From IMG/VR virus record IMGVR_UViG_3300035146_000036: a stretch of 64,000 bases of DNA. One strand, 5' to 3'. Positions 12,716-62,993 of the stretch are shown here, in pieces. The DNA comes from a virus. The position numbers were made by a program, and so were the translations under genes. Under the pieces are notes generated by a model that saw only the letters and a program-made list of their open reading frames with translations, searched no databases and was not told the origin of the DNA. Position 1 is the stretch's first letter. Every line of letters begins with the position of its first letter.

Positions 12716-13444
12716 ATGGCTCTAATAAAGGTAATTCCAAATGTGCTCATTCATGAGTTTTTGACTGGAGCTTCTTTATCAGGTGTTGCTCCAGTCAATG
12801 TAGAATATTCATTTGATTATGATAATGAAGCTAGTGGACCATTTGTAGTTGGTGACGCATTATCTTGGACTGGTGGAACGGGTCTTTTAGCAGATTTAGT
12901 AGATAATGGTACTACGGGAAGTATGACTATTGTATTGATAAGTGGAGTTGTACCAACTGATGGTTTGACTATTACAGGGGCACCGTCTGGTGCTACTTGT
13001 GATGTTGATGGTGTTGTAACATTAGTGGGTGATTGTGATTCTAATGAGACTATAAAGAGAGGGCGTTATAGAAGATATTGTAATTTGGCAGATGGTGGAT
13101 TGATAGATATTGAAGAATCTGTTGCAATAAATGGTTTCAGAGTAAAAGATGTTTTGATTAGTGCACCTGGTATTACTGCGGTTATTTTTTATGTTGTTGA
13201 TAGGGATTCGAATGCTGTATGTGCTGGTAGTGCAACTGTTACAACAGGGAATGGTTTTAATGAATGGATAGAACCTGGTTTACTTGTTGCTCCAGGATGT
13301 AAATTTAAAGTAGTTGGCACAGGTACATTAACTGATGCTGGAAGAATAATGTTTATTCTTGATAATGGATGGGGAGCAAGTGTATTTGATTTTGCACCAT
13401 CGATAGGCAGGGAAAGTCGGCCTCCTGGTATGGATAGGCCATAA
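12716..13444 (+). CDS. Hypothetical tail protein between sheath and tube
   Basis: ORF in operon. Confidence 0.4.
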   Translation: MALIKVIPNVLIHEFLTGASLSGVAPVNVEYSFDYDNEASGPFVVGDALSWTGGTGLLADLVDNGTTGSMTIVLISGVVPTDGLTITGAPSGATCDVDGVVTLVGDCDSNETIKRGRYRRYCNLADGGLIDIEESVAINGFRVKDVLISAPGITAVIFYVVDRDSNAVCAGSATVTTGNGFNEWIEPGLLVAPGCKFKVVGTGTLTDAGRIMFILDNGWGASVFDFAPSIGRESRPPGMDRP

Positions 13445-14005: not shown

Positions 14006-14563
14006 ATGGCAAGAAATCGTTTATTGGATTTTATGCAAACTCATAAATTTTGGCTATTCGATGTAGTTCCAAGTTTGTCGCCTCCTTTTTGGGTTTTAGG
14101 GACACCCTTTTTAGGTTTTTCGAGTATTACAGCACCACAATATACTGCTGAAGTTGATAATATAAAACAGATTAATTCTATGTTTCGGAAATATGCTTAT
14201 TCTGGAGGACAAGTTGATCCAATAGTATTAACAAGAGGTGTTCGTGGTTTTGATGATACTATGTGGGAATGGATGTATAGGGCAATAACTGGTCTAGAGG
14301 TTACAAATAGACATTTGTTATTGCTTCATTTTACGAATATTAGATTATCTGATAGTCCTTTTCCAAATGTGGCTGAAGGATTTCAATTTCCGATGACTGC
14401 TGGAATTTTTCTTCCTGGTAAAGCATGGCTTCTTTGGAATTCTATTCCAATACGGTATAAAGCTGGATCAGATTTTGATGGCAAAAGTGGTGAAGTTAGT
14501 TTGGCTGAATTAGAGGTTCAGCCAGAAGCTATAACAGAATTTACATTGTTAGATCCTGTATGA
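14006..14563 (+). CDS. Tail tube paralog (gp19-like)
   Basis: Same domain pattern (LGFSSITAPQYTAEVDNIKQIN); second tube gene. Confidence 0.55.
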   Translation: MARNRLLDFMQTHKFWLFDVVPSLSPPFWVLGTPFLGFSSITAPQYTAEVDNIKQINSMFRKYAYSGGQVDPIVLTRGVRGFDDTMWEWMYRAITGLEVTNRHLLLLHFTNIRLSDSPFPNVAEGFQFPMTAGIFLPGKAWLLWNSIPIRYKAGSDFDGKSGEVSLAELEVQPEAITEFTLLDPV

Positions 14564-14576
14564 TAATTTATAGATA

Positions 14577-15056
14577 ATGGAATTTCAATATACTTCAACA
14601 ATGACGAGAAGAGAACTTGCTGTAAAACTAATGAATGTTTTACGTGAAGGGTTCAATAAAAGATTCACAAAGAGAGCTTTTATTTCTCCTGTTCCAAGAT
14701 CTTTTCCTGGTGGTCATGTAATGGTTATGTTGTCTCCGTTATATAATAAAAAAGGTGAAAATGTTGGTGAAATAAGGATTTATATCTATGTTTCAGAAGA
14801 TGAAAATATACCAATTCTTATAAGATCAGAATGGACAAGAAATGCATTTGGTTTTTGGTATAGATACGATAATAGATTATTTGATAAAGATAATGTAATA
14901 GTTGATTTGTATTCAAAAATAAGAGACATTTCAAAATGGTTTTCTGTTACAGCAGATGGGACGGTTAAGGTTTTGTCAATGAATCGTATGTTTAGAAAAA
15001 TAAAGAAAACATCTGCTCGTGACAAAGCAGTCAGAGTTGGAATGGTAATGGGATAA
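14577..15056 (+). CDS. Hypothetical protein
   Basis: ORF. Confidence 0.4.
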   Translation: MEFQYTSTMTRRELAVKLMNVLREGFNKRFTKRAFISPVPRSFPGGHVMVMLSPLYNKKGENVGEIRIYIYVSEDENIPILIRSEWTRNAFGFWYRYDNRLFDKDNVIVDLYSKIRDISKWFSVTADGTVKVLSMNRMFRKIKKTSARDKAVRVGMVMG

Positions 15057-15068
15057 GGAATTGGTAAA

Positions 15069-15392
15069 ATGAGGAATAGATTATCTGATTTTATTATTGA
15101 TAAGCCGGTTAAAGAGGAACATGTATTATCTTACAAAGGTAAACGTCTTTTTAGGGCATTAAAATCCTTGGGAGAACGTTCCATTAAAGGACGTGATGTT
15201 GATAAATATATTTTTGAAGTTGTATATAAAAATGGTGTAGAAACATTAAGAATGCTTATCGAAGGTAGACATGCTTTATCTATTAGTAATCAGATAGCAA
15301 AAGGACTTTCAAATATGGACGAACTCGAGTTCGTTGATGTTGTGAAAACAAAAAATGGTGCGAAGATTGTACTTCGTTCTATTGGAGAGTAG
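15069..15392 (+). CDS. Hypothetical protein
   Basis: ORF. Confidence 0.4.
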   Translation: MRNRLSDFIIDKPVKEEHVLSYKGKRLFRALKSLGERSIKGRDVDKYIFEVVYKNGVETLRMLIEGRHALSISNQIAKGLSNMDELEFVDVVKTKNGAKIVLRSIGE

Positions 15393-15401
15393 GAGAGTAA
15401 A

Positions 15402-15812
15402 ATGGGAAAATTAAAGATATATTCTGATAGTATAGATGAGTTACTGGTTAATAGGGTTGATGCTGATGTAATGAGTGAATCATCTGAGTTAGGTAATGAT
15501 GATGAAAAGATTGATGAGGCTTGGAAGATTGAAGACTATATGTCTAATTTTGTTTCGGTAAAAGCTTTGGTTGCGTTGTCATTGTCGATAGTAAAGCGAA
15601 TGAAAGGCAGTGCTCTTTCTAAATTTCAAGGAAAATTATCTGATATTGATAATGAGATGGAAAAAGAAATAGACAGAATGGATAGCAAAAAAGAGATGGA
15701 ATTTAATAAATTATATATGAAAAAGATAAAAGGTGTTAAGGCTAAAATATTAGAAGAATTTGGTGGCGATTTTTTGAAAGAAATTGAAGAAGATAAAAGG
15801 GAAAAAGAATGA
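15402..15812 (+). CDS. Hypothetical acidic coiled-coil protein
   Basis: ORF with GGAGAG RBS. Confidence 0.4.
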   Translation: MGKLKIYSDSIDELLVNRVDADVMSESSELGNDDEKIDEAWKIEDYMSNFVSVKALVALSLSIVKRMKGSALSKFQGKLSDIDNEMEKEIDRMDSKKEMEFNKLYMKKIKGVKAKILEEFGGDFLKEIEEDKREKE

Positions 15813-16108
15813 CAATATCTTCTGGTAATATTGCTGGTGTGATAAAACCTATTGGAATGTTAAAATTACCGTGGTGTCCATGTAGTGGTAGAATTTGTAA
15901 AATTGAAGAAATTCCAGTTAATAAAAAGAAGAAGAGAAAGATTAGTGTGTATGAGATATTGAATATTGATGGTCATACTATGCTTGAAGAAGCAAGAGAA
16001 AAACGTCATATTGTGAACGGTAAACGTGGAATATGGCGCACAATAAGAGGAAGACATTATTTTTTTCCGGATGATAAATCAGGTGTTATTCCTCCAATTA
16101 AGGGTTAA
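15809..16108 (+). CDS. Hypothetical protein
   Basis: ORF, 4-nt overlap with upstream gene. Confidence 0.35.
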   Translation: MTISSGNIAGVIKPIGMLKLPWCPCSGRICKIEEIPVNKKKKRKISVYEILNIDGHTMLEEAREKRHIVNGKRGIWRTIRGRHYFFPDDKSGVIPPIKG

Positions 16109-16110
16109 TA

Positions 16111-16320
16111 ATGGTTATTATGAAGGATATTATAGAGTCTAGTGGTTCAGAAATTATGGAGGGTATTTCATATGGTGCTGCTGAGAAGTTAGCAGATAAT
16201 ATGATAAAAAATCCTAGAAGTGTAGCTATGTTGGATAGATATGGTGTTGAGGCATCTGAGGATATTACTAGATTGAAAGATGTTCTAGTTAGATTTCTAA
16301 TAAATTATTTTAAGAGATAA
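16111..16320 (+). CDS. Hypothetical protein
   Basis: ORF. Confidence 0.3.
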   Translation: MVIMKDIIESSGSEIMEGISYGAAEKLADNMIKNPRSVAMLDRYGVEASEDITRLKDVLVRFLINYFKR

Positions 16321-16354
16321 TAAAAAAATTGATGTTTCACGTGAAACAGAGAGG

Positions 16355-16654
16355 ATGTGTAAGATGTGTAAAAAGAAGACTGTAAATGTTGTGAATTCTG
16401 ATGATTTGAGGAAGAAAGTTTCTGATGTTGAGATATTTGGTAATCCAGATACTTTTCAGTTAATTTGTAAGGCAAGTTCCAAAAATGAAGGATGGATGAA
16501 GTCAACAAAGGCTATGGAGATTCCCGGAAGAGGATGTATAATACAAGTTTCTACACAGCAAGGTGATAATGTTGCAGAAGCTATTTGTTTTGTTCCAGAT
16601 GTTGTTATTTTAGTTGATGATGAAAGTGGAAATAAAAAGATAGTAAAAGGGTAA
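16355..16654 (+). CDS. Hypothetical protein
   Basis: ORF after GTTTCACGTGAAAC palindrome and GAGAGGA RBS. Confidence 0.4.
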   Translation: MCKMCKKKTVNVVNSDDLRKKVSDVEIFGNPDTFQLICKASSKNEGWMKSTKAMEIPGRGCIIQVSTQQGDNVAEAICFVPDVVILVDDESGNKKIVKG

Positions 16655-16659
16655 TAATT

Positions 16660-16677
16660 GTGTTTTATGTCAAACAC
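16660..16677. terminator. Hairpin between convergent genes (GTGTTT-tatgtc-AAACAC), weak bidirectional terminator candidate
   Basis: 6-bp inverted repeat where plus and minus genes converge. Confidence 0.3.
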
Positions 16678-17015
16678 TTATTGATCCATTCAGTAATGAG
16701 AGCATCATAGATTTCACAGACATCGCATGGTTTAGTAAGAATATGTATATTGGGCATATCATATTTGAGTGTATAGTTTGCTGTATATATTACGAATGGT
16801 ATTGTTGAATGTTGAACTATTTTTAGTCCGTCTGATTTGTTTGGGCAATCCCAATCGCTAAGGATTATGTCAAAATTTCCGTCTTGAAGAGCTATTAGTC
16901 CATCATCACAGGAATGTTTGACTGTTATACTTTTCCAAGTATTTTTCATTACTCTGGAAAGCATACGAGTAATTTGTTCATCATCATCAATGATTAGTAA
17001 ATTCAGGTTTTTCAT
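16665..17015 (-). CDS. Stand-alone response-regulator receiver (CheY-like REC) domain protein
   Basis: LLIIDDDE...DIILSDWDCPNKSDGLKIV...LTKPCD aligns with CheY DD pocket, phospho-Asp (ISDWNMPNMDGLEL) and conserved Lys (VVKP). Confidence 0.8.
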   Translation of the reverse strand: MKNLNLLIIDDDEQITRMLSRVMKNTWKSITVKHSCDDGLIALQDGNFDIILSDWDCPNKSDGLKIVQHSTIPFVIYTANYTLKYDMPNIHILTKPCDVCEIYDALITEWINKCLT

Positions 17016-17022
17016 TGTTTTT

Positions 17023-17232
17023 TTACCATACGGCTATTTGTTTTTTGCATGAATCACAATGTTCAGTGTTTGATTTGGAGAGATGTGAATTCATAATAAA
17101 AATAGCAGTTCCTTCTTTTTCTAGTCGTTTAGCACATTCTGTACAATAGAGATAACCTCTGTTGTCGACTATTCCTGTAATTGTATTATTTGGGTCATTT
17201 TTTTGATAGATATAAATTTCTGAGGCTTTCAT
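17023..17232 (-). CDS. Small CxxC...CxxC zinc-ribbon protein, co-transcribed with REC gene
   Basis: CTEC...CDSC motifs; 8 nt upstream of the REC ORF on the same strand. Confidence 0.5.
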   Translation of the reverse strand: MKASEIYIYQKNDPNNTITGIVDNRGYLYCTECAKRLEKEGTAIFIMNSHLSKSNTEHCDSCKKQIAVW

Positions 17233-17276
17233 TAGTTTGTTCCTTTCTGTCGAAATCTTATCGACTATCTATATGA

Positions 17277-17361
17277 ATATTAACATTATGATAAAGTTTG
17301 TCAACTTTTTTGATAAAAAAATGCAAAAGTGTTGATAATAATAGTATAAAAGTGGTATTAT
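17277..17361. promoter_or_regulatory. Divergent promoter region (minus-strand TTGACA-16-TAATAT; plus-strand TTGATA-18-TATTAT)
   Basis: Hexamers read directly; located between the minus REC operon and the plus RHH gene. Confidence 0.45.
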
Positions 17362-17393
17362 TTACTCAAGTAGTGTTTTAGGAAGGTTGTTAT

Positions 17394-17573
17394 ATGCCAA
17401 GGTTGAATGTTGAAATAAAAAGTGGTGTATATAAGAGGTTTCTTGATCAATGTAAGGAGGATGGTAGAAGTGCTAGTGATGTTGTTAGAGAGTTGATTTT
17501 AGATTATGTGGAGAGAAGAGTTAGGGAAAAATTTAGGATTGCTAAAATAGAGAAAGAAGTTACAGATGAATGA
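17394..17573 (+). CDS. Ribbon-helix-helix (CopG/Arc-like) DNA-binding protein, 59 aa
   Basis: VYKRFLDQCKEDGRSASDVVRELILDYV is a typical RHH beta-strand plus two helices; GGAAGG RBS; below the ORF-track size cutoff. Confidence 0.6.
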   Translation: MPRLNVEIKSGVYKRFLDQCKEDGRSASDVVRELILDYVERRVREKFRIAKIEKEVTDE

Positions 17574-18393
17574 GATGAATGATGAAAAGGTTATCGATGA
17601 TAAAATTGTATTAGGTAAGACAAAAGGTCATGTTCTTGATATAGGGCCAGGTTGTATTACTATTGAGTTGCCAGCAGGATATATTCATGAGGATGGAGAG
17701 CTTCACGTGCATGCTGTATTACGTGAGATGAAGGGACCAGAAGAAGAATTGTTGGCTAGTAAAGGTTCAATAGTTTCTAGATTGAATGTTATAATTGGGA
17801 ATTGTTTAGAGCAAATAGGGTCTATTAGTGATAAGTCTTTATTAAGAAAAATAGCTTGTAATCTGATAGCTCAAGATAGAATGGCTATTCTTTTGGCTCT
17901 TCGTAGAATATCACTTGGTGATTTTTATGATTGTACAGTTACATGTCCAGAGTGTAATGTGAGTCAGCATGTTACGGTAAATTTATCAGAAATTGAAATT
18001 TCACCAATGCCAAATAGGATGGAAAGAGAAATGGTTAATGTTCTTCCTAGTGGAAGAGAAGTAAAATGGCATGTGATAAGGATAGAAGATGAAGAATGGC
18101 TTACAGAGCAGCGTAAAAGAAAAAGAGATAAAGAACTTTTAACATTACATTTATTGTCTCGTGTTGATTCGATTGATGATATTGAAGTAGATAGAAAGAA
18201 TAAGTATAAAGAAGCTATTGATTTGTTGATGGATTTACCGATAAGGGATAGAGCTACTTTGAGAGATCTTTTTGATAAAAAAGAAGATAATATAGATACG
18301 TTGGTGCAGTTTATGTGTGAGAGGTGTGGACATGAATGGGAAGGTAAGTTGGATGTTGGTCAGCCAAGTTTTTTCTTCCCATCGGTCAAATAG
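17566..18393 (+). CDS. Tail assembly chaperone candidate (gpG-like); -1 frameshift at 18369-18375 would extend it to 18575 (gpGT-like)
   Basis: Located immediately upstream of the tape measure gene; T TTT TTC slippery heptamer near the 3' end; the -1 frame is open to 18575. Confidence 0.5.
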   Translation: MNEMNDEKVIDDKIVLGKTKGHVLDIGPGCITIELPAGYIHEDGELHVHAVLREMKGPEEELLASKGSIVSRLNVIIGNCLEQIGSISDKSLLRKIACNLIAQDRMAILLALRRISLGDFYDCTVTCPECNVSQHVTVNLSEIEISPMPNRMEREMVNVLPSGREVKWHVIRIEDEEWLTEQRKRKRDKELLTLHLLSRVDSIDDIEVDRKNKYKEAIDLLMDLPIRDRATLRDLFDKKEDNIDTLVQFMCERCGHEWEGKLDVGQPSFFFPSVK

Positions 18394-18600
18394 ATGTCCT
18401 TGAGGATGAAATGTTTTATTTAATGGAAAGACAAGGACAGAGTTATTTGACCATTATGAATATGCCATATTCAAGAAGAAAGCGGTTTGTAGAAAAAAAA
18501 TCTTCATTAGATAGATCTGCTATGAATGTTAAAAAGAATCAGCAAAGTTATAGCAGACCAAGACGAAGAAGGTAACGAACTCGAGTTCGTGAGGTAAATA

Positions 18601-21600
18601 ATGAGTTTTCTTGGTATATCATTGGAGATGGCAGCTGTTGATGCTGGGATGAAGGATGGCATTATAAAGGCTGCAAAAGCACTTGATGATGTTAACAAAA
18701 TGTTAATAGACCAGGATAGTGTTATCAAGAAAATCAAGAAAGAGAATTTTTTTGAAGATACAGAAAAAAATGCCGGTAAAGCATCTAATAAAGTAGGTAT
18801 TTTATCTAAGACATTTAAAGAGCTTGGCAATATTGGGTCAAAATCTGCAAATAAAATAAAATCATCTTTTGATAAAATAAGAAATTCTGTGATGCAATTT
18901 AATATTGCTGATATGGCATCAAATGTTAGAACATTAACTGGAGAGACTGGTAATCTTACAAATAGTTTGGAAGCTACAATGGTGAGTATGCTTCAGTCTA
19001 CTAAACCAGTTGCTGCATCATTGAATTTATCAGGAAAGGAGATGAGGAAGTTTGCAAGTCAAGCGGCAAGTATGGCCTATAGTATGAATACATCGGCTGA
19101 TGCTGTTGCAGAGACAATGAGGTCAATTCATGTAGCTAATAAGGGAGCAACAGAGGCTATGAATGAATTGGGATTGTCTACAAAAGATTGGGTAAAAGTT
19201 GTTCAAACAACTAACGTTCCTATGTCTGAATATACAGCTATTCTTGGTGATATGACAACAAGTTGGCAAGCTTCACCAAAAGAGGCCGCTAATATGATTG
19301 ACAGCCTTATGGCAATAGGAAAGGCTGCTGGAACTGGAACTGGTGCTGTAAAGAATGCAAAAGTTCAGTTGGATGAATTAGGGGAAGTTTTTAAAACATT
19401 GCCTCCTTCTATGGCAAGAACTTCTGACGAGATAATGAGTTTAATGCAATCATCAGCTAGAATGTCTGGTGTATTTAGAGAGATGGGAGATACGCAAGAA
19501 GAAGCTATAACAAAGGCAAATACTGTAGCAAGAATGTTTGCTGAACAGGATGTAGCTATTAGAAAAGCTTTAAATATTGGTGATGACCGTGCTCTTATGG
19601 ATAATCCATTGCTTAAGTATCTTATGAGACTTGGTATTGGATTTGATTCGGCCAGAAAGATTATTGAAACTGGTAGTCGTGATGTAGTTGCTGGTATGAA
19701 GATGGTTAATAATGTTTATGCACGTTTTGGAACTGATGTGTCTCCACAAGTTCAAAGAGCTTTATCTGGATTAAGTGGTGCTCTTGGGGAAGGAGCTGCT
19801 GGATTATCATATTTGGCGACTAATACAAAACAAGGAACTGCTGCATTAGATAAAATGGCAAAAATGGCTGTTGATGGGTCTGGTGCATTAAAGAAATTTG
19901 GAAAAGATGCATATAGTTCCGGGTTAACCTTACAAGAAACATATGATAGAGCAAAAGAGTCATTTGATACAACTGTTAGAAGTATAGCTAGACAAAATGT
20001 AAGAAATCTTGTTGGAAAACAAATTGCTGGTATGCGTGAAGCAGGAAAAGAAATAAAAGAACTTGGTTCTGATAAAACTTGGGGACCATGGGTAAATGCA
20101 TTATCTCAATTTCGTCAGATGGGTATTAGTGGTGTATTTGCATCTATGGCTGAATATACAGGGGTTGGTGCTAAAAACGCGGCAAAATTTGGATCTAAAA
20201 TTGGATTAGTATTTGATACAGTTAGTCAGTTTGGAAGTGAACTTGCTCCAATAATGCATATGTTGGGTATGGCAGGTCCTCTTGCTCCATTAATTGCTGC
20301 TGGAGGTATTGGTGCTTTATTATTTATGGATGATTCGTCTGTTAGACAAATTTTAGGTCCATTTTATAAAATTTTTAATGATTTAAAAAATAAGGCTGCA
20401 AAAATATGGGATTATTTTATAGGTATTTGGGATAATAAAGTTGTTCCTAGGATTAAAGTATTTTGGAAATATGATATGAAACCAGCAATGATTGATTTTT
20501 GGAATGAAGATTTTATTCCTTTTTTGAAAGAAAATATTCCTAAATTGGGGATGGCAATATGGGATGGAATTAAGTGGGCTTGGAATAAATTAGGAGAGAT
20601 GACAGGAACTACTGGTCAGGCAGGTGTTATAGGTGGAGCTATGTTGGCTGGTTTTGGACCAGGAATGGTCGGAGCTGGTACTCAAGCTGGAATAGCTTTT
20701 TTGAAAGCTGTTGCATCTCATCCAACTGCTGCTGGTGCTACAGGTCTTGCTGGTTTAGCTGCTTATGCTGGGTGGAAAATGGCAGAGTCTATTTTTGGGC
20801 CAAAATCTGTTAGTAATGCAATAGCTGAAGCTGAGGTAATAGCTGGTGGAAGTGCTGATAAATTTGGAATGTATAAGTTGGCATGGCAGCGTAAACCGGA
20901 AGAGATGGCAGGTCAATTGGGCAGATTAAGAGCTGCTCTTAAAGCGGAAAAGGAAAGTTGGTTTCCTGATAGTGATGATGTTAAAATTCTTGAAAAAGCT
21001 ATATCTTTATTAACAGATGCCCAAAGTGAGCTTATTCTTGATAAGACGGAATCGAATGTTGAAAAATATACTTTGGGTGGAAAGACGACAGCAGAGCAAT
21101 TTATAAATGGTCTAACATCAGGATTAGAAGAAGGTAGGCAATCTGTTGATGATGGTCTTGATTTTATAGCAGATGGAATGATAGCACATTCTCCAATAAA
21201 ATCTGGTCCTCTTGCTGGTGAAGGAGAGTCTAACGCTGCATATCGTGGTGGATATTTTACGATGGAACAGTTTGCTTTAGGTATTACAGATAGTACTGAT
21301 ATTATTAGGAGAGCAATTGAAACAACTCTTAATGATTCTGTTATACTTACTATAGATACATATGCTGCTAAAATGAGAGACCTTGCTAAACAAAAGATGT
21401 TTTTGGCATCTGTTGCTAAAGCAATGGTAAAAGATTTAGGTGGAAATATAGAAACATCTATTGATTCCGAATCTGATATAAATGTGAAAAAGAATTTTGA
21501 AGCTGCTATGAATTTACCTGGTCTTGCTAGTGTTGTTTTGGCTGTTTCAAATGAAGGTGCTCAAACAAGGAAATTATTAAAACGTATTTTAGAAGAAAAT

Positions 21601-21675
21601 ATACGTCAAACTAGTGTAATGAGTGGTGGTGTGAGTATTCCTGTGACAGGAACTACTACTCCACCACCAAGTTGA
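18601..21675 (+). CDS. Tail tape measure protein
   Basis: 1024 aa, Ala/Gly-rich helical protein with hydrophobic Gly-rich segments; between chaperone candidate and baseplate genes. Confidence 0.75.
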   Translation: MSFLGISLEMAAVDAGMKDGIIKAAKALDDVNKMLIDQDSVIKKIKKENFFEDTEKNAGKASNKVGILSKTFKELGNIGSKSANKIKSSFDKIRNSVMQFNIADMASNVRTLTGETGNLTNSLEATMVSMLQSTKPVAASLNLSGKEMRKFASQAASMAYSMNTSADAVAETMRSIHVANKGATEAMNELGLSTKDWVKVVQTTNVPMSEYTAILGDMTTSWQASPKEAANMIDSLMAIGKAAGTGTGAVKNAKVQLDELGEVFKTLPPSMARTSDEIMSLMQSSARMSGVFREMGDTQEEAITKANTVARMFAEQDVAIRKALNIGDDRALMDNPLLKYLMRLGIGFDSARKIIETGSRDVVAGMKMVNNVYARFGTDVSPQVQRALSGLSGALGEGAAGLSYLATNTKQGTAALDKMAKMAVDGSGALKKFGKDAYSSGLTLQETYDRAKESFDTTVRSIARQNVRNLVGKQIAGMREAGKEIKELGSDKTWGPWVNALSQFRQMGISGVFASMAEYTGVGAKNAAKFGSKIGLVFDTVSQFGSELAPIMHMLGMAGPLAPLIAAGGIGALLFMDDSSVRQILGPFYKIFNDLKNKAAKIWDYFIGIWDNKVVPRIKVFWKYDMKPAMIDFWNEDFIPFLKENIPKLGMAIWDGIKWAWNKLGEMTGTTGQAGVIGGAMLAGFGPGMVGAGTQAGIAFLKAVASHPTAAGATGLAGLAAYAGWKMAESIFGPKSVSNAIAEAEVIAGGSADKFGMYKLAWQRKPEEMAGQLGRLRAALKAEKESWFPDSDDVKILEKAISLLTDAQSELILDKTESNVEKYTLGGKTTAEQFINGLTSGLEEGRQSVDDGLDFIADGMIAHSPIKSGPLAGEGESNAAYRGGYFTMEQFALGITDSTDIIRRAIETTLNDSVILTIDTYAAKMRDLAKQKMFLASVAKAMVKDLGGNIETSIDSESDINVKKNFEAAMNLPGLASVVLAVSNEGAQTRKLLKRILEENIRQTSVMSGGVSIPVTGTTTPPPS

Positions 21676-22073
21676 GATATAAAATGAGTATTGGAACAGA
21701 CCCAAATCCAAAGAAGAATTTATTGAGAGCTAGTACATTTTCTTATATGAATTTTATGCCTGAGCAGTTGATTTATGATAAGGAAAAGAATAATTTGATT
21801 AGATTTAGATCTATGTTTGAAATGCCTAATTGGGATGGTGTGGAGGATGGAGAATTTAGTTATGTTATTAGTGGGCAAAATGAACGTTTGGATAAAATAG
21901 CTGCTAAATTTTGGGGAATTGATAGACAGGAACTTTATTGGGTAATTGCAGCAAGAAACAATTTGGATCTTCCAGATGTTCAACTTTATCAAGGTAGGAC
22001 AATAAAAATTCCATCTAAAAGTTGGATAGATACATATTTGTTACCTCAAACACAGAATTATATTGAAAGATGA
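21672..22073 (+). CDS. LysM-domain tail protein (P2 gpX-like)
   Basis: YVISGQNERLDKIAAKFWGIDRQELYWVIAARNNL...GRTIKIP is a LysM motif; 4-nt overlap with the tape measure gene. Confidence 0.65.
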   Translation: MRYKMSIGTDPNPKKNLLRASTFSYMNFMPEQLIYDKEKNNLIRFRSMFEMPNWDGVEDGEFSYVISGQNERLDKIAAKFWGIDRQELYWVIAARNNLDLPDVQLYQGRTIKIPSKSWIDTYLLPQTQNYIER

Positions 22074-46576: not shown

Positions 46577-47601
46577 AAAAAGTAGAGTTATCATGGAGTG
46601 AGGGTGATACAGATGTCATTATTTTGGTGGATGATGATCCGCTGAAAATTCTGACGTATGAATTTGACTCGGATGCCGTGCATGATTTTTGTATAGCAGG
46701 GCAACTATATTATCGGTCAAAATCTGGGTTATCTGGGGCGGGTTGGGTTCCTGCCAATGATGTCTTAAAGTTGGGATGGTATCGCGTAGACATTCCTAGG
46801 CAATCTCCCGTTAATGTTGCATCAATTGGGGATGGTCTTTATATGTGGATCCCAATTCGGGGTCACAAGGGGATAGATAAAAATTATCCAGTAGTTATAT
46901 CAGACCGGTTAGACAAAGTATGGTTTTTACCAGTGAATTTTGTGCAACGCAACATTTCTTCCATCATCCAAAGTCTCGATGTCGCAATGTCGAATGATTG
47001 TTTGACCGCAAAACAGATTCCATTTACTTGGCTTGTGCCTGAGCGACCACCATTGCTTGAAGTTCGACGCTTCGATACTAACGAAAATAACGAATTAGTG
47101 GATGTATCTTATGAGTGTACTTTATATACGATGGAATCTACTGCTTCAAGACCTTCAATTAGTAGATTTCTTAATTTGGAAGAATATACCATTCCTACTC
47201 ATCAATGGTTGGGAGAACTTGCTAGGCCGCAAACAACGTGGATGAAAAATTTAGGTATTTATCAAGTCTTAGATGACCAGTGGGTTGTAGTTGGAAAAGA
47301 AGGCTTGATAGAGCATACTCTTTCATCGGACCCTCGAATGATAGATGGCGGGGAGATGTGTCATGGGTGGGCATTCGAAGGCGATGGTTTAGTTTGGCGT
47401 AGTACTTTTGATGGTATAAACACTAATATTTATGCCATAAAAGAAATTCCTAGTAGCCGCATTTCTGATGTGCATGATGTGCAGAATGATAATGATGAGG
47501 AATATATAGCGCATGAAATTACCATTAGCGAATATCAGTGGAAAGTGATGACGTCACAGGATCGTCATGCCATGATGGATAAAAACTTAAAAAAAAGTTG
47601 A
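46573..47601 (+). CDS. Hypothetical protein (342 aa)
   Basis: ORF with 4-nt overlap to the upstream gene. Confidence 0.45.
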   Translation: MKKVELSWSEGDTDVIILVDDDPLKILTYEFDSDAVHDFCIAGQLYYRSKSGLSGAGWVPANDVLKLGWYRVDIPRQSPVNVASIGDGLYMWIPIRGHKGIDKNYPVVISDRLDKVWFLPVNFVQRNISSIIQSLDVAMSNDCLTAKQIPFTWLVPERPPLLEVRRFDTNENNELVDVSYECTLYTMESTASRPSISRFLNLEEYTIPTHQWLGELARPQTTWMKNLGIYQVLDDQWVVVGKEGLIEHTLSSDPRMIDGGEMCHGWAFEGDGLVWRSTFDGINTNIYAIKEIPSSRISDVHDVQNDNDEEYIAHEITISEYQWKVMTSQDRHAMMDKNLKKS

Positions 47602-47655
47602 CAAAGCATTTTTGAGGTCTTAAAATCAGTATAGATGCTCAACAAGATGTTGAGC
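47599..47655 (+). promoter_or_regulatory. Sigma70-type promoter (TTGACA-16-TAAAAT) followed by stem-loop CTCAACAAGATGTTGAG
   Basis: Near-identical copy at 49313-49369. Confidence 0.6.
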
Positions 47656-47670
47656 GAAAGGAGAAGAAAG

Positions 47671-47991
47671 ATGAAAAACCTGATAGGGTATGAGGCAATT
47701 GATTTCAAGCGTAGTAATTCAGATTCAGTGCTCTGCAAATATGCAGACCCCATAGAAGACGCGCGTTATGACATCTCAGTAGCAGATGCTGAGGAAATCG
47801 CCAGCGAAGACCCCAGTCTCATCTTTATCTATGTCAAGCCAACGGAATTTCTAGTTTATATGGATGCGCCTCGACATTGGGCTGTAGCCGCTGTCGATCT
47901 GGATGATGATTTGAGTTGGGCGCGAAATTGTAACGGGGTATTCAAAAACCCCAAAGACGCGGAAGCCCATGCTGCGCGATTGAATGGATAG
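47671..47991 (+). CDS. Hypothetical protein
   Basis: ATG after AAGGAG; ORF-track start at 47635 lies inside the stem-loop. Confidence 0.4.
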   Translation: MKNLIGYEAIDFKRSNSDSVLCKYADPIEDARYDISVADAEEIASEDPSLIFIYVKPTEFLVYMDAPRHWAVAAVDLDDDLSWARNCNGVFKNPKDAEAHAARLNG

Positions 47992-49312: not shown

Positions 49313-49369
49313 TTGACAAACTATTTTTAATGTCTTAAAATCAATGTAGATACTCAACAAGATGTTGAG
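49313..49369 (+). promoter_or_regulatory. Sigma70-type promoter (TTGACA-17-TAAAAT) plus stem-loop, duplicate of 47599-47655
   Basis: About 50 nt nearly identical to the upstream copy. Confidence 0.6.
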
Positions 49370-49381
49370 GAGGAGACAATT

Positions 49382-51589
49382 ATGGTTATAAAAAACAAAT
49401 TTTCGAAACGTTGTGAGTGTTGTGGAGAGCAAGTTGGCGTGGGTGACGGTTTTGCTTTCGTTGAAAATGGTACTTGGCATACAGTTTGCAAATCAACAGC
49501 TTGTCATCGAAAACTTGGCGTAGACCAGAATAGAGATAATGTCCGTAAATTGACCGAGGATGGCAAGGTCATCATGGGGTATGACAAAAATGCTATTACT
49601 CTGTTGCGTTCTATGCCTGGGGCTCGATGGAATCCAGACGAAAAGCACTGGACAGTGAGTGTCAAGACTGAGGACTTGGATAGAGTCATCGAGATTGCTG
49701 ACCAACTAAAACTCGATGTTCCTGATAGTCTAAGGAAGCGTGCTTCAATCGGTACCGTAGCCTCTCAAGAAGCTGAAAAACGAGCTGAACGTGTCAGGGT
49801 TGACGGAAGTCCTCTTTATGATTTTCAGCGTGATGGAGTTAGATTTCTTGCTCTTCATAATCATGCGTTGATGGCTGATGATATGGGACTCGGGAAAACC
49901 GTTCAGGCTCTTGTTGCCATTCCTGAGAAATCAAGAGTTTTAGTTACTTGCCCTTCTGCTGTTAAATACAACTGGAGAGATGAGATTCAACTTTGGAGAC
50001 CAGATTATTCTATTAGGATAGTCAAGGGTAAAAAAGACGATAATATTGTCCCTAACGAGGGTGAGATAGTTATTGTCAATTATGATATTCTGCCCAAATG
50101 GTTGATGCCCACAATTGATAGTGGGAAAATAAATAAGAAGGGTGACCCGATTCTGGTTGCTGATATTCCATCAGACAAACGTTCTGGTTTGAGCGAGACA
50201 ATTGTTATTTTTGATGAAGGTCATCTTGCAAAAAATTACAAAGCTAAAAGGACACAAAAGGTTACACAATTATCAAAAAATGTTGCCAAGGTTTGGGTTT
50301 TGACTGGAACTCCGTTGATGAATCGACCATTTGATTTGTGGGGTGTTTTGTGTGCGTTTGGAATGTATCCTTTGGGTGGATTTAACAAGTTTGTTAATCT
50401 TTTCAATGGTTCATGTAGTAAGTACGGTGGGTATGAGTTTGGTCTTCCCACTCAGGAAGTTGTTGAGAGAATGAAGAGAGTTATGATTCGTAGACTCAAA
50501 AAAGACGTTCTCAAAGACCTTCCTCCTAAGACTTATCAGAGGATTGAGGTTGATTGTTCTAGTAGGTCTCTCAATAAGGAATTGAAAGAACTTGCTCAAG
50601 AAATTGCCGATGCTCAAGGAATCAATTTTGATGCAGATGATTTTTCAATGTTGGACCTTGATACAATCCCTGATTTTAATGCTTTTTCTCGAGTAAGGGC
50701 TTTGTTGGCTAAAGCTAAAATTCCTGCTATGTTGAATTTAATTGAAGAGCATGAGGAAACTGATACGCCAGTCGTTGTTTTTTCTGCTCATAGATCCCCT
50801 ATAGATGAGTTGGCTAGTCGTGATGGATGGGACGTAATAACCGGTGATACGTCTGCAGAGGATAGACAGAATGTCGTAAGGAGGTTTCAATGTGGCGAAT
50901 TGAAGGGTGTTGGTTTGACAATCAAGGCTGGGGGTGTTGGTCTTACTTTGACAAGGGCTTCTAATGCGATTTTTGTTGATCTTGACTGGACACCCTCTTG
51001 GAATATTCAGGCAGAGGACAGAATTTGCAGGATAGGTCAGAAGAGTAACAATGTGACTATCAAAAGGCTGGTTTCTTCTCATCCTCTTGATATTCACATT
51101 CAAAATATTATAGAGTACAAAGTCAAACTTGCCTATATGGCTCTTGATAATGATTATGTTTTCAAGGGTGGCCAAAAAGTTTCTAGTAAAAAGTCTGATT
51201 TTGTAGATCTCAAAGAGGAGAGTGATGAAGAGCTCTCGGAAAGGATTCGCAAAGCGGAGTATGAAGCCAATCGAGAGTATTACTCTCAGAAAATCAGGAG
51301 AGTGGCTGATCGGGAATCTGAGCGGGTTTCTCATGTGCCAGAACCTGAACTAACCGAGGAAAGGAAGAGCCTACTGAGGGGCGCTCTAGGCCATCTGTGT
51401 AGTGTTTGTGATGGGGCTTTTCTGAAGGATGGAATGGGATTCAATAAGCCTGATGCCTGTATTGGGCATTGGATGAATTCTATAGATATTGAAACGGCTG
51501 AAGATGATATTTATAGAGTGCTGGAAAGAATTCTTGTGAGATATCGAAAGACTCAACTTGCGGGTAAGTTTGATGGAATTTGGAGTTGA
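49382..51589 (+). CDS. SNF2-family helicase/ATPase with N-terminal Cys-rich zinc-finger-like region
   Basis: DMGLGKTVQ (motif I), IFDEGHLAKN (motif II), LTGTPLMNRPFDLW (III), GGVGLTLT (V), QAEDRICRIGQ (VI). Confidence 0.8.
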   Translation: MVIKNKFSKRCECCGEQVGVGDGFAFVENGTWHTVCKSTACHRKLGVDQNRDNVRKLTEDGKVIMGYDKNAITLLRSMPGARWNPDEKHWTVSVKTEDLDRVIEIADQLKLDVPDSLRKRASIGTVASQEAEKRAERVRVDGSPLYDFQRDGVRFLALHNHALMADDMGLGKTVQALVAIPEKSRVLVTCPSAVKYNWRDEIQLWRPDYSIRIVKGKKDDNIVPNEGEIVIVNYDILPKWLMPTIDSGKINKKGDPILVADIPSDKRSGLSETIVIFDEGHLAKNYKAKRTQKVTQLSKNVAKVWVLTGTPLMNRPFDLWGVLCAFGMYPLGGFNKFVNLFNGSCSKYGGYEFGLPTQEVVERMKRVMIRRLKKDVLKDLPPKTYQRIEVDCSSRSLNKELKELAQEIADAQGINFDADDFSMLDLDTIPDFNAFSRVRALLAKAKIPAMLNLIEEHEETDTPVVVFSAHRSPIDELASRDGWDVITGDTSAEDRQNVVRRFQCGELKGVGLTIKAGGVGLTLTRASNAIFVDLDWTPSWNIQAEDRICRIGQKSNNVTIKRLVSSHPLDIHIQNIIEYKVKLAYMALDNDYVFKGGQKVSSKKSDFVDLKEESDEELSERIRKAEYEANREYYSQKIRRVADRESERVSHVPEPELTEERKSLLRGALGHLCSVCDGAFLKDGMGFNKPDACIGHWMNSIDIETAEDDIYRVLERILVRYRKTQLAGKFDGIWS

Positions 51590-51592
51590 ATA

Positions 51593-52156
51593 ATGAAAAT
51601 TGATTTAAGTGGAAGAAATTTGCGAGGAGCCATTTTGGAAGGGGCTGACCTCGAAGGAGCCAATCTAAAAGGGGCTGACCTTGAAGGTGCCAACCTCAAA
51701 GATGCCTACCTAAAAGGAGCCAATCTAAAAAAAGCCAACCTTGAAGGGGCCAATCTAAAAGGGGCCTTCCTCGAAGGGGCTGACCTCGAAGGGGTTAAGT
51801 TCAAAGAAGCCAACCTCAAAGGGACCAATCTTGAGGGGGCCATCCTTAAATGGGCCAACCTAGAAGGTGCCAAACTCAAAGAAGCCAACCTAAAATTGGT
51901 CAACTTTGAAGGGGCAGACCTTAAAGATGCTAACCTTGAAGGGGCCAATTTTGAAAGTGCCAACCTCTACTTGGCCAATCTTGAAAGTGCCAACCTTAAA
52001 GGGGCCAAGTTTAAAAGGGCTTACTTGGAAGGAGTCAACTTTAAAGGGGCTTACCTGGAAGGGGCTGAATTGGAAAAGACAGATTTAAGTGGGATAAATT
52101 TAGAAGGGGCCTATCTCAAAGGGTCCAACCTCGAAGGAAGAAAAAATGAAAATTGA
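51593..52156 (+). CDS. Pentapeptide-repeat protein 1
   Basis: A[DN]L[EK]GA repeats throughout; starts [13 protein letters not shown]. Confidence 0.75.
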
Positions 52157-52784
52157 TTTAAGTGGAAGAAATTTGCGAGGAGCCAACTTCGAAGGAATTG
52201 ATTTGCGAGGTGCTAAGCTAGAAAGGACCAACCTTGAAGAAGCTAACCTCGAAGGAGCCAACCTAAAAGGGGCCAAACTCGAATGGACATACCTAAGATG
52301 TGCCAATCTTGAAGGGGCAGACCTTGAAAAGGCAGACTTTACAGGGGCCAATCTTGAAGGTGCTAACCTTGAAGGTACTGACCTCAAAGGGGCAGACCTA
52401 AGAGGTGCCAATCTCGAAAGGGTCAACCTCAAAATGGCCAACATCGAAGATGCCAACCTAAGATATGCCAATTTTAAAGGGTCAGACTTTACAGGGGCCA
52501 ACCTTGAAGGGGCAGACCTTGAAATGGCAGACCTCAAAAGGGCCAATTTAGAAATGGCAGACCTAAAAAGGGCCAATCTAGAAGGGGCCATCCTTAAATG
52601 TGCCAACCTTGAAGGAGTCAATCTAGAAGGAGCCAATCTAGAAGGAGCCAACCTCGAAGGGGCCAAAATTAAAGGGGCCTACCTCAAAGGAGCCAATCTT
52701 AAAGGAGCCAATCTTAAAGAGGTCGATCTAGAAGAGGTCGATCTAGAAGGGGCCAACCTCGAAGGGATAAAAAATGAAAATTGA
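52146..52784 (+). CDS. Pentapeptide-repeat protein 2
   Basis: Tandem paralog with same N-terminus; start overlaps the upstream gene. Confidence 0.75.
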
Positions 52785-53286
52785 TTTAAATGGAAGAAAT
52801 TTGCGGGGAGCCATCCTCAAAGGGGTCAACTTCGAAGGAGCCAACCTAAAAGGGGCTGACCTCGAAGGGGTTGACCTCGAAGAAGCTAACCTCAAAGGGG
52901 CCAATCTCAAAGGGGCCAATCTTGAAAGTGCCAACCTTGAAAGTGCCAATCTTGAAAGTGCCAACCTTAAAGGGGCCAATCTTAAAGGGGTCAACCTAAA
53001 AGGGGTTGGCCTCGAAGGGGTTGACCTAAAAGGGGTTGACCTCGAAGATGCCAATCTAGAATGGGCCTACCTTAAAGATGCCAATCTTGAAGGGGCCAAT
53101 CTCAAAGATGCCAACATCAAATGGGCTTACCTTGAAGGGGTCAATCTCAAAGATGCCAATCTTGAAAGTGCCAATCTTGAAAGTGCCAACCTTAAAGGGG
53201 CCAATCTTGAAAGTGCCAACCTTAAAGAGGTCAAGTTCAAATGGGCTGGCTTCGAAGGGGCCAACCTCGAAGGAACCAAGATATAA
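52774..53286 (+). CDS. Pentapeptide-repeat protein 3
   Basis: Tandem paralog. Confidence 0.75.
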
Positions 53287-53741: not shown

Positions 53742-54014
53742 ATGGAAGAAAAAAGTGATGATTATTTGATTGGTGAATTGGAACGATTGAATATAACATT
53801 GGAAAGTATTTTAAATATTTTTCTATCTGATAATAATGTAGATATTACGAATGAAAAAAGTGATTCAGTTGTAGTTGATATTAAAAAAATTTGTAACGTG
53901 ATTCCTGTATGCAAAAATAGGATAGAGAAATTATCTCGTATTAATAGAGAACTCATGGCAAATATGTGTGCTATAGAAGAAATTGTTATGGGTAATGAAA
54001 ATCGAGATAGTTGA
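53742..54014 (+). CDS. Hypothetical protein
   Basis: ATG after GGAGG; ORF-track start is TTG. Confidence 0.4.
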   Translation: MEEKSDDYLIGELERLNITLESILNIFLSDNNVDITNEKSDSVVVDIKKICNVIPVCKNRIEKLSRINRELMANMCAIEEIVMGNENRDS

Positions 54015-54038
54015 CAATGTAGTTTTTTTGTGTATTAT
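54011..54038 (+). promoter_or_regulatory. Sigma70-type promoter (TTGACA-16-TATTAT)
   Basis: Hexamers read directly. Confidence 0.45.
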
Positions 54039-54221
54039 CTATGACTAGATAGTTGGCAAGATGCCAAAGAAAGGTTGATTTGATAATGAAAATTGATAAA
54101 TGTAAAGTTGCTTTTTCTATTAAACTAGATCCTAAAGTGGTCAGGGAAGCAGCGTTGAGATATCCTGATAAGACTGTTTTGGATGCTTTTTTTCTTATGG
54201 GGTTTTTTATGGGGGTATTGA

Positions 54222-62101: not shown

Positions 62102-62158
62102 TTGACAAACGGTTTTGTAGGGTTAGAATAGAGGATAGATACTGAGCAAGATGCTTAG
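62102..62158 (+). promoter_or_regulatory. Sigma70-type promoter (TTGACA-16-TAGAAT) plus stem-loop CTGAGCAAGATGCTTAG
   Basis: Third copy of the promoter plus stem-loop cassette, with compensatory stem changes. Confidence 0.5.
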
Positions 62159-62187
62159 GAAAGGAGAAACAAAAAGGAGAGTTAGAT

Positions 62188-62469
62188 ATGAATCCATATA
62201 TGGAAGAGTCAACAATTAAAGAGTTATGGTGTGATTCTTGTTTGGAGACAACATACCATGAATGGATTAATGGAAGATGGGTTTGTGTAAATAGTTTTAA
62301 ACATGACGATATATGTGAAAAACGTCATAGAGAATATGTGTTGCAACTTGCTTATGATAGAGGATTAAGGGCGAATACTTTTGCTACTAATGATGAATTG
62401 TCTGTTTTGGGATATGCAAGAGAATGGGATAGAGGGTTTAAAGAGAGAAAGACAGGAGTTAGATTATAG
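62188..62469 (+). CDS. Hypothetical Cys/His-containing protein
   Basis: ORF with AAGGAG RBS. Confidence 0.45.
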   Translation: MNPYMEESTIKELWCDSCLETTYHEWINGRWVCVNSFKHDDICEKRHREYVLQLAYDRGLRANTFATNDELSVLGYAREWDRGFKERKTGVRL

Positions 62470-62470
62470 A

Positions 62471-62546
62471 TGCGGAGTAGAGCAGTAGTTTAGCTCGCTG
62501 GTTTCATACGCCAGGTCAGTCAAGGGTTCGAATCCCTTCTCCGCAA
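62471..62546 (+). tRNA. tRNA, anticodon CAU (Met, or Ile2 if lysidine-modified)
   Basis: Cloverleaf folded by hand: acceptor TGCGGAG/CTCCGCA, D-stem GAGC/GCTC, anticodon stem CTGGT/GCCAG with loop TTCATAC, T-arm AAGGG-TTCGAAT-CCCTT; variable loop looks 7 nt. Confidence 0.6.
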
Positions 62547-62559
62547 AAATTTAGTTTAA

Positions 62560-62631
62560 GCCGATGTAACTTAATGGTAGAGTAACTGACCTGTAATCAG
62601 TTTGTTGGAGGTTCAAGTCCTCTCATCGGCT
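62560..62631 (+). tRNA. tRNA, anticodon UGU (Thr) with unusual C33
   Basis: Acceptor GCCGATG/CATCGGC, D-stem ACTT/GAGT, anticodon stem ACTGA/TCAGT with loop CCTGTAA, T-arm GGAGG-TTCAAGT-CCTCT. Confidence 0.6.
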
Positions 62632-62641
62632 TTAGGAGGTA

Positions 62642-62902
62642 TTGATTATTATCATGTTATTAGAACCTGGTTCAGTTGCTTTTGTGATAAGTAGTGATTA
62701 TGTATATGGTGGTTATCCTGTAGTTGTTGTTGAAGAAGATACTAGTAGAGAAAATTGTTTTATTGTAAGGAAAAAAATTGGTTTAATATGGTATAATCAA
62801 GTCGTTTCTAGAGATATTCTTAGGGAGTTATCTTTTGATGAGGTAGAGAAATATAAAGAAGATTTGGATTTTTTGAACATGTCGCTTCAAAAGAAGCTTT
62901 GA
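62642..62902 (+). CDS. Hypothetical small protein between tRNAs
   Basis: ORF. Confidence 0.3.
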   Translation: MIIIMLLEPGSVAFVISSDYVYGGYPVVVVEEDTSRENCFIVRKKIGLIWYNQVVSRDILRELSFDEVEKYKEDLDFLNMSLQKKL

Positions 62903-62920
62903 TTGAAACGTAATAAATAG

Positions 62921-62993
62921 TCGCCATTAGCTCAATTGGTTAGAGCGCTCGCCTTATAAGCGAGTGACCGAGGTTCAAATCCTTGATGGCGAA
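62921..62993 (+). tRNA. tRNA, anticodon UAU (Ile, AUA-decoding)
   Basis: Acceptor TCGCCAT/ATGGCGA (7 perfect bp), D-arm GCTC-AATTGGTTA-GAGC, anticodon stem CTCGC/GCGAG with loop CTTATAA, T-arm CGAGG-TTCAAAT-CCTTG. Confidence 0.7.

Follow-up and report, generated by a model that had tools for sequence, protein, structure and literature searches.

Why should a contractile-tailed phage carry a CheY-like receiver on the minus strand, in the middle of its tail genes, and on what could such a protein act? The question is raised by a 64,000-nucleotide stretch of the IMG/VR virus record IMGVR_UViG_3300035146_000036 (hereafter the window). In it, a gene for a 69-aa zinc-ribbon protein and a gene for a stand-alone receiver of 116 aa (REC) form a leftward unit, divergent from a plus-strand gene for a 59-aa, probable ribbon-helix-helix (RHH) protein. 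The initial annotation saw in these three genes a cassette that could tap host two-component signalling and so control late or tail gene expression. On sequence grounds, REC belongs to a distinct, so far undescribed family of stand-alone receivers of 108–150 aa with the signature [ST]DWDCP. The reading developed here, to which we give about an even chance, is that REC, an orphan receiver of the CheY type whose phosphochemistry is intact, is expressed early and targets a component of the host, as a sink, a decoy or a sensor.

The identification of the 116-aa protein as a stand-alone, CheY-like receiver stands. The Pfam model Response_reg (PF00072) matches it with E=1e-6, covering profile positions 2–84 only; the orthologues P0002–P0004 have a precomputed match to the same model, and the match of P0001 is marked ‘weak’. 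The best NCBIfam match is CheY, with CpdR- and DivK-type models also among the matches, and a PDB profile search made with the five closest sequences places CheY structures first (E~7e-7). In hhalign comparisons, REC aligns over its full length both with Escherichia coli CheY (96% probability, E=2e-9) and with Bacillus subtilis Spo0F (94% probability).

The residues of the active site are in register with those of CheY: D10/D11 of REC correspond to D12/D13, the phospho-aspartate D54 to D57 (and also to D54 of Spo0F), T78 to T87 and K95-P96 to K109-P110. The acidic pocket, phospho-Asp and Lys positions reported in the initial annotation are all conserved, as is the pair T78-A79. The loop following the phospho-aspartate reads SDWDCP in REC and SDWNMP in CheY, SDW-x-x-P being common to both. 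The two proteins are thus alike as stand-alone receivers of about 120 aa with the acidic pair, phospho-Asp, Thr and Lys-Pro in place. They differ in that REC is only ~26% identical to CheY, has a shorter α3–β4 loop and an α4 helix reduced by ~5 residues (a deletion seen in the alignments to both CheY and Spo0F), carries I92 and no aromatic residue at the K-3 switch position, and has its gene in a phage, behind an early-type phage promoter.

Other single-domain receivers offer a comparison of function. Spo0F, the CheY2-type sinks, DivK and CpdR likewise consist of a single receiver domain, the output of which is phosphotransfer or protein binding; the phosphate-sink and phosphorelay receivers are proposed here as a functional analogy for REC, not as its orthologues. 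Among phage protein families, REC matches phrog_731, phrog_5982 and phrog_20458 (E 1e-6 to 0.03), which also contain phage receiver domains. Unlike REC, these profiles are 227–1030 positions long and describe multi-domain regulators or hybrid kinases, of which the receiver domain alone is matched. CheY-like genes have been annotated in phage genomes, for example CDS-30 of Alteromonas phage V22 (PMC7289586). A Rec-fold domain of large and jumbo phages, cREC, is never found with histidine kinases and conserves the catalytic Asp residues; it was defined by its linkage to genes processing NAD+/ADP-ribose and cyclic nucleotides (Iyer, Anantharaman, Krishnan, Burroughs, Aravind 2021, PMC7824862). 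The REC family differs from cREC in having no such linkage around it, and REC scores as a canonical CheY-like receiver.

The family was delimited by an exhaustive HMMER search of 1.84 billion cluster representatives, which gave 1,717 matches at E≤1e-3. The ~25 top clusters (50% identity; E 1e-42 to 1e-12) are almost all stand-alone proteins of 108–150 aa matched over the whole profile; at weaker E-values, starting near 1e-12, most matches are generic receivers and hybrid kinases. In an alignment of 24 family sequences, D11, D54, P58, P73, T78 and K95 are invariant, and W55, D56 and G63 nearly so. The phospho-acceptor D54 in particular, the residue on which a role in phosphotransfer would depend, is present in 24 of the 24. 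Position 10 is Asp or Glu in almost all sequences, the residue after the Thr is Ala or Gly, and the Pro after the Lys (P96) is found in the window lineage and in almost all other members. The Cys of DWDCP is replaced by Met, Val or Leu in distant members, and it occupies the position of CheY Met60; it is therefore not catalytic.

As far as found here, the family appears to occur only on phage-like DNA. All ten clusters for which the source was checked (10/10) come from metagenome assemblies, seven of them with contigs <7 kb; the source of cluster P0017 is an NCBI-held contig of 64.7 kb. Six other members lie on IMG/VR viral contigs of 18–120 kb, which have REC as the sole gene in common with the window. 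A pattern scan of one genome per species, covering 185,579 prokaryotic species, returned a single family member, a 53-kb copy of the same phage; every other match was an ordinary receiver with 23–39% identity. The next-best cellular relatives of the family are CheY proteins. Stand-alone receivers of 127–139 aa were also seen on other, unrelated phage contigs (L017:5998-6381 and L018:5989-6408, one of them of high G+C), where they adjoin tail-fibre-like, holin-like and amidase-like genes and have the D, D, T and K residues intact, so that orphan receivers recur in phages beyond the DWDCP family.

No partner for phosphotransfer is encoded nearby. In agreement with the initial annotation, HisKA, HATPase_c, Hpt and second receiver domains are absent from the 86 other open reading frames (ORFs) of the window in a Pfam search at E≤1e-3. 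No kinase or Hpt gene lies within ~7–10 kb on either side of REC in the relatives and family members, and CheA, CheZ and other chemotaxis genes are likewise missing near REC. Neither the window nor the family neighbourhoods examined contain genes for NAD+/ADP-ribose or cyclic-nucleotide processing. REC is an orphan receiver in this 64-kb window of a genome of ~173 kb.

The genes around the family members outside the window lineage are of a different kind. On L027, the REC gene is flanked by a dCMP deaminase and an ATP-dependent DNA ligase; on the contig of P0045 it follows a 5′-3′ exonuclease, a uracil-DNA glycosylase and a dCMP deaminase; on L047 and L048 it is found within runs of co-directional small ORFs, one of which includes an AAA ATPase. 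The RHH–hub gene pair and homologues of the window zinc ribbon are absent from all four contexts. A distant member of the window lineage itself, L029 (sheath 73% identical), keeps REC, the RHH gene and the leftward promoter. Since only REC is common to the window and the other lineages, it is the constant element, with no requirement for a conserved partner on the phage side; that it lies in the tail module is a peculiarity of this lineage, because the other lineages hold it in other contexts. Control of late or tail genes by the cassette, as put forward in the initial annotation, is not borne out. The family resides in replication and nucleotide-metabolism modules of unrelated phages without RHH, hub or zinc-ribbon genes, L029 dispenses with the zinc ribbon, and the leftward promoter is of a class shared with four non-structural promoters. 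On these grounds (family contexts, L029 and promoter class), REC is best seen as an early gene lodged by chance in the tail module.

The window encodes a sheath, two gp19-type tube proteins, a gp26-type hub protein, a 1024-aa tape measure, gp5/V-like and gp25-like proteins, an SNF2 helicase and three tRNAs. It comes from a contractile-tailed phage, a virulent-looking myophage with a G+C content of 34%; the genome is taken to be ~173 kb because a contig of 172,915 bp carries a zinc-ribbon protein identical to the window copy. The interruption of the plus-strand tail module is as first described: the zinc-ribbon and REC genes are the sole clear minus-strand genes in the structural half, and in the full window there are at most two other minus-strand ORFs, both doubtful. 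Homologous phages carry the cassette at the same position, between small tube-proximal genes and the genes for the hub and tape measure. Orthologues were found at this place in every relative recovered from metagenomes and IMG/VR (L001–L016, L034 and L029, the last without the zinc ribbon). The synteny is conserved in at least eight relatives, with the complete trio in seven. Among the 50,697 GenBank phages, neither a nucleotide search with positions 14500–22000 nor a search with the REC protein found a match. The window sheath is only 33% identical to that of Bacillus phage BCD7, and in that phage the tube and hub genes have no cassette between them. Together with the TGn-extended promoters and strong Shine–Dalgarno (SD) sites, this distant similarity is a hint of a Gram-positive host. 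A 93%-identical copy of the phage region, L034 (CAYUTF010000016.1, 53,464 bp), is deposited within a metagenome-assembled genome of an ‘uncultured archaeon’; since the promoters and SD sites look bacterial, the archaeal assignment was treated as a probable binning artefact.

The intergenic region between the divergent genes, 161 bp in length (Table 1), is more conserved in distant comparisons than the synonymous sites of the flanking genes, of which a proportion (pS) of 0.43–0.84 differ. The minus-strand promoter TTGACA-16-TAATAT predicted upstream of the zinc-ribbon and REC genes is present and conserved: its -35 box is invariant in 7/7 aligned relatives and is found in L029 too. A candidate rightward promoter upstream of the RHH gene is conserved in seven close relatives and is unrecognisable in L029. 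The transcript of the leftward promoter would begin with a small hairpin, which on the DNA forms a palindrome, GTCGA-N7-TCGAC, that is unique in the window.

A scan of the whole window showed that its best TTGACA-type promoters lie in intergenic gaps of the non-structural half, and that five of the promoters in the window share one layout. TTGACA is followed after 16 or 17 nt by TAxxAT and after another ~5 nt by TAGAT[AG], a 6-nt arm, AAGAT, the complementary arm, (A)GAAAGGAG and ATG. The cassette has one of these promoter-plus-leader units; non-structural genes follow the other four. Six copies of the motif TAGATR-N6-AAGAT are present in the window, against 0.34 expected, and five of them have the full layout; the sixth, at 42511, has neither stem nor promoter and is probably due to chance. 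By comparison, a generic [AG]AGAT loop flanked by at least five paired bases is not enriched (18 against 16 expected from shuffles). The arms differ among the copies and yet pair, with 93% of positions paired against 30–50% when the arms are slid; four of the six pairs show compensatory changes, the AAGAU loop is constant, and each of the five copies folds as predicted. The orthologous hairpin of L029 has a further compensatory change in its stem. The palindrome is thus the cassette copy of a 5′ leader RNA hairpin, since the element at the same position in the other units covaries. The possibility that it is an operator for the RHH protein was considered and rejected: at the four other promoters and in L029 the arms are different but complementary, around the same AAGAT loop. 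An Rfam scan of the window gave the three tRNAs only and no family for the hairpin.

With the usual spacing from the promoter, the expected transcription start falls in the TAGAT box, which would place the hairpin a few nucleotides from the 5′ end and directly before the SD site. Such a placement resembles that of 5′-terminal mRNA stabilisers or translational operators. The units probably represent the signal of a phage early regulon, acting in one of these two ways, and the zinc ribbon and REC would be co-expressed with early or replication genes by the host RNA polymerase. No terminators are predicted between REC and the gene convergent with it, so that late rightward transcription would run antisense through REC and the zinc-ribbon gene.

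Taken together, the leftward unit, zinc ribbon first and then REC, would be an early accessory unit lodged in the tail module and transcribed by the host RNA polymerase from TTGACA-16-TAATAT, its mRNA starting with the 5′-terminal hairpin that other early or replication transcripts have in common. D54 of REC would be phosphorylated by histidine kinases or Hpt proteins of the host, or by acetyl-phosphate, and the protein would act on host two-component signalling as a phosphate sink or as a decoy for a host receiver; alternatively, a protein contact that depends on phosphorylation may let it report the physiological state of the host to the phage. As for the zinc ribbon and the remaining small ORFs, they would be lineage-specific passengers of the unit.

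Several observations weigh against this reading. The PF00072 score of REC, 29.3 bits, is just below the gathering score of 30.2. An AlphaFold2 model made from a 5-sequence alignment is poor (predicted local distance difference test score, pLDDT, 58.8); β1-α1-β2-α2-β3 and α5 are modelled, residues 57–95 are unresolved, and the fold of the C-terminal half (α3–β5) is consequently taken from sequence alignment. The α4 helix, which normally belongs to the output face, is shortened, and this may point to a non-canonical output or to a role outside signalling; the catalytic residues that are kept would fit a small-molecule phosphatase equally well. The leftward promoter is no more than a match to consensus, in a region where sigma-70-like matches barely exceed the number expected from shuffling (18 against 14.4). 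Finally, the timing of expression, the phosphorylation, the host target and the binding of the RHH protein are each inferred.

The retention of the catalytic residues bears on two other accounts of REC. It may be a phosphorylation-independent decoy or adaptor which mimics a host receiver of the CheY, PilG/H, Spo0F or CpdR/RssB type and forms a stoichiometric complex with the partner of that receiver (motor switch, kinase, protease or sigma factor), phosphotransfer being unnecessary. The closest cellular relatives of REC are indeed CheY-type single-domain regulators, the usual output face is altered by the shortened α4, and early expression, as inferred from the promoter, would suit a host-takeover factor. 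Pseudo-receivers, however, usually lose some of their catalytic residues, and the strict conservation of five such residues, of the Ala/Gly after the Thr and of the Pro after the Lys would be unexpected if phosphochemistry were dispensable; this account is unlikely. REC may also be an enzyme, a small phosphatase or phosphotransferase with an Asp nucleophile (the chemistry of REC and HAD proteins), working on a small phosphorylated or cyclic-nucleotide substrate. It could, for example, drain acetyl-phosphate or destroy a defence second messenger, by analogy with the predicted cREC domains of jumbo phages. That the family is found here only on phage DNA, stand-alone and never with a kinase nearby, with the active-site rim DWD[CM]P strictly conserved, agrees with such an activity, as does the prediction by Iyer et al. 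2021 (PMC7824862) that a divergent phage Rec domain is a nucleotide-processing enzyme. We nevertheless consider it quite unlikely. The family resembles canonical CheY far more closely than cREC is described to do, with CheY proteins as its best matches among cellular proteins and in the PDB; the canonical switch residues T78 and K95-P96 are kept, and none of the neighbourhoods examined contains NAD+/ADP-ribose-processing genes; the sole PADLOC match is a weak one to the N-terminal half of REC (E=0.0012).

The remaining accounts concern the cassette as a whole. In one, REC, zinc ribbon and RHH protein form a single module that senses host signalling and switches the late or tail genes; the RHH protein might repress the divergent promoters, for example, and phosphorylated REC or the zinc ribbon might relieve the repression or activate. 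The three genes are adjacent and diverge around a very conserved control region, translation of the RHH gene and of the baseplate-hub gene is apparently coupled, and seven relatives keep the trio. Against this stand the other lineages, where the family is found in DNA-metabolism modules without the remaining genes, and L029, which retains REC, RHH gene and leftward promoter without the zinc ribbon and in which the rightward promoter cannot be recognised. In addition, REC has no DNA-binding domain, and the sole palindrome is a leader hairpin common to unrelated early promoters, not a private operator. We do not think such a module likely. In the other account the cassette is without function and its ORFs arose by chance or are remnants in decay, as the small size of the ORFs, the sub-threshold profile scores of the RHH and zinc-ribbon proteins and the gene-sized gains and losses in the cassette might suggest. 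The ratio of nonsynonymous to synonymous substitution rates (dN/dS), calculated pairwise with syntenic relatives and only where synonymous sites are unsaturated (they are near or at saturation in the distant comparisons), is 0.06–0.20 for REC, 0.08–0.19 for the RHH gene and 0.12–0.46 for the zinc ribbon. These values indicate purifying selection and are like those of the structural hub gene (0.11–0.25). Synteny in at least eight relatives, invariant Cys and catalytic residues, and the conservation of promoter, leader and SD site point the same way; control-region conservation, dN/dS and invariant residues effectively refute the remnant account, which we regard as extremely improbable.

The 59-aa gene was correctly described as a divergent plus-strand ORF, and its assignment to the RHH class holds only as probable, every profile match being below threshold. 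The best Pfam scores are 20.1 bits for VapB_antitox (cut-off 27.9), 18.0 for RHH_5 (26), 17.8 for ParG (21.4) and 15.8 for RHH_1 (20.5). Arc-like PHROGs match with E 1e-3 to 0.09 and the PDB entries of ParG and AvtR with E 0.025 and 0.1, respectively. The hhalign comparison with P22 Arc (E 3.5e-4, probability 37%) places the MPxxN strand and the ...GRS.. helix in register. The matches are concordant and none is significant alone. The layout, an MPRLNVEIK strand followed by a ...EDGRSASDVVRELILDYV helix pair, resembles that of the Arc/Mnt/CopG repressors, with which the protein shares a similar size, the N-terminal MPxxN β-strand and a G-R-S-x-S/N...helix pattern; in contrast to these, its gene is apparently coupled to that of a baseplate hub, where a repressor gene would not usually be expected. 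The protein is 75–100% identical among relatives. It plausibly binds within the conserved divergent control region, in which no private operator or conserved private repeat for it was found.

The end of the RHH gene does overlap the next gene, as noted initially, by 8 nt (stop at 17571–17573, ATG at 17566) in the string ATGAATGA, and the two genes are apparently translationally coupled. The ‘tail-chaperone’ label given to the downstream gene is not supported: it encodes a baseplate-hub protein of the T4 gp26 type, recognised by PF12322 and by phrog_150 ‘baseplate hub’ (E=6.5e-16). The downstream tail block starts with the hub gene, which is outside the cassette proper; the RHH gene belongs to this rightward block.

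The 69-aa protein has the CxxC motifs ascribed to it, as two invariant knuckles, C30xxC33 and C59xxC62. These four Cys and H50 are invariant in 8 orthologues of 62–96% identity. No named zinc-ribbon family could be assigned, the Pfam, NCBIfam and PHROG matches all having E≥0.02 and covering the knuckles only; a PDB profile search for a known fold was empty, and the best Foldseek match in the PDB to an AlphaFold2 model (pLDDT 69.7) has E=1.3. The name ‘deoxycytidylate deaminase’, given to one orthologue in the Joint Genome Institute annotation, was judged spurious, as it is based on CxxC only. In L029 the same promoter and leader precede an unrelated, Cys-rich ORF of 274 aa, which replaces the zinc ribbon; the zinc ribbon is treated as a passenger because it is dispensable there. 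A small membrane-like ORF is also present in the leftward unit of L029.

The leftward cassette is a hot spot of gene-sized gain and loss, with one to four extra, unrelated small ORFs in relatives (Table 1). The closest relatives of the window have, between zinc ribbon and REC, an ORF of 58–59 aa (MSLPKTSISFKEA...) that the window lacks. Its absence is due to a clean indel of ~181 bp at 17016–17022, which leaves 7 nt between the stop of the zinc-ribbon gene and the start of REC. Inverted repeats flanking the cassette were sought and none was convincing; the reading as an invertible segment was dropped.

Table 1. Cassette genes, control signals and related features (window positions, or contig:positions for relatives).
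Feature	Position	Strand	Remarks
REC, stand-alone CheY-like receiver, 116 aa	16665..17015	-	ORF confirmed
Zinc ribbon, 69 aa	17023..17232	-	ORF confirmed; first gene of leftward unit
Probable RHH protein, 59 aa	17394..17573	+	ORF confirmed
T4 gp26-type baseplate-hub protein, 275 aa	17566..18393	+	PF12322 51.3 bits (cut-off 24.5)
Gene convergent with REC	16355-16654	+	10 nt between the two stops
Divergent control region, 161 bp	17233..17393	.	71–98% identical, window vs relatives
Leftward early-type promoter	17277..17304	-	TTGACA 17304->17299, 16-nt spacer, TAATAT 17282->17277, TGn extension
5′ leader hairpin GUCGAU-AAGAU-UUCGAC	17249..17265	-	preceded by conserved TAGATA (17271->17266)
SD site of zinc-ribbon gene, GAAAGGA	17241..17247	-	read from sequence; GAAAGGAG-type SD after hairpin in other leader units too
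Candidate rightward promoter TTGATA-18-TATTAT (TGn)	17332..17361	+	upstream of RHH gene; no leader hairpin
SD site of RHH gene, AGGAAGG	17380-17386	+	
Promoter-plus-leader unit of cassette	17304-17230	-	
Promoter-plus-leader unit	47598-47673	+	
Promoter-plus-leader unit	49313-49384	+	upstream of SNF2 helicase
Promoter-plus-leader unit	54011-54090	+	
Promoter-plus-leader unit	62102-62190	+	
58–59-aa ORF, closest relatives	L014:5816-5999		
58–59-aa ORF, closest relatives	L009:9816-9999		
Extra-ORF stretch	L005:7147-7987		
Extra-ORF stretch	L006:7147-7815		
Extra-ORF stretch	L015:4742-6004		
Extra-ORF stretch	L029:7001-7972		

Some neighbouring genes and other features of the phage were also recorded. 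In relatives, the gene convergent with REC has a precomputed Pfam label, PF26760 ‘Lockin’; the gene is missing from L015. Between its sheath and tube genes, L001 has an extra 300-aa gene (14376–15278, minus strand) with faint Sigma70_r4/helix-turn-helix Pfam matches; at this place the window has a 242-aa ORF (12716–13444) without a Pfam match. A Glyco_transf_25 domain (lipopolysaccharide glycosyltransferase family 25; E=5.8e-12) was found in the structural half, among the 39 ORFs scanned at window positions 1–38335. Directly after the SNF2 helicase, three tandem paralogous pentapeptide-repeat genes (51593–53286, plus strand; 187, 212 and 170 aa; Pfam Pentapeptide E down to 2e-80) could encode DNA mimics or anti-restriction proteins. 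A 962-aa protein (57105–59993, plus strand) combines four P22_AR_N (antirepressor N-terminal) repeats with a Bro-N domain in an unusually large fusion. The three tRNA genes, Met-CAT, Thr-TGT and Ile-TAT, lie at 62471–62993 on the plus strand.

Two-component phosphotransfer is the main sensory wiring of bacteria, and phages are known to tap quorum-sensing and other host signals. Receiver-containing phage PHROGs and annotations in the style of auxiliary metabolic genes are already known; what is new here is a receiver sub-family, found so far on phage-like DNA only, that combines a signature of its own and an intact active site with the lack of a kinase and a setting among early genes, the domain itself being ordinary. 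No functional study of a phage-encoded stand-alone receiver was found in the searchable literature. It is possible, and is put forward tentatively, that the [ST]DWDCP mini-receivers as a whole are a virus-specific class of early orphan CheY-like proteins that are phosphorylated by histidine kinases or CheA/Hpt-type donors of the host and thereby drain or re-route host two-component signalling. If so, they would represent the first phosphate sink or receiver decoy of viral origin, spread over several unrelated phage lineages, and the signalling affected might be, for example, that of motility, pili, sporulation or stress responses. The promoter-plus-5′-hairpin units, for their part, offer a way into the early regulon of this uncultured phage lineage with its genome of ~173 kb. 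The definition of the family turns a lone ORF into a testable question: which host kinase or partner the receiver engages, and what the phage gains from it.

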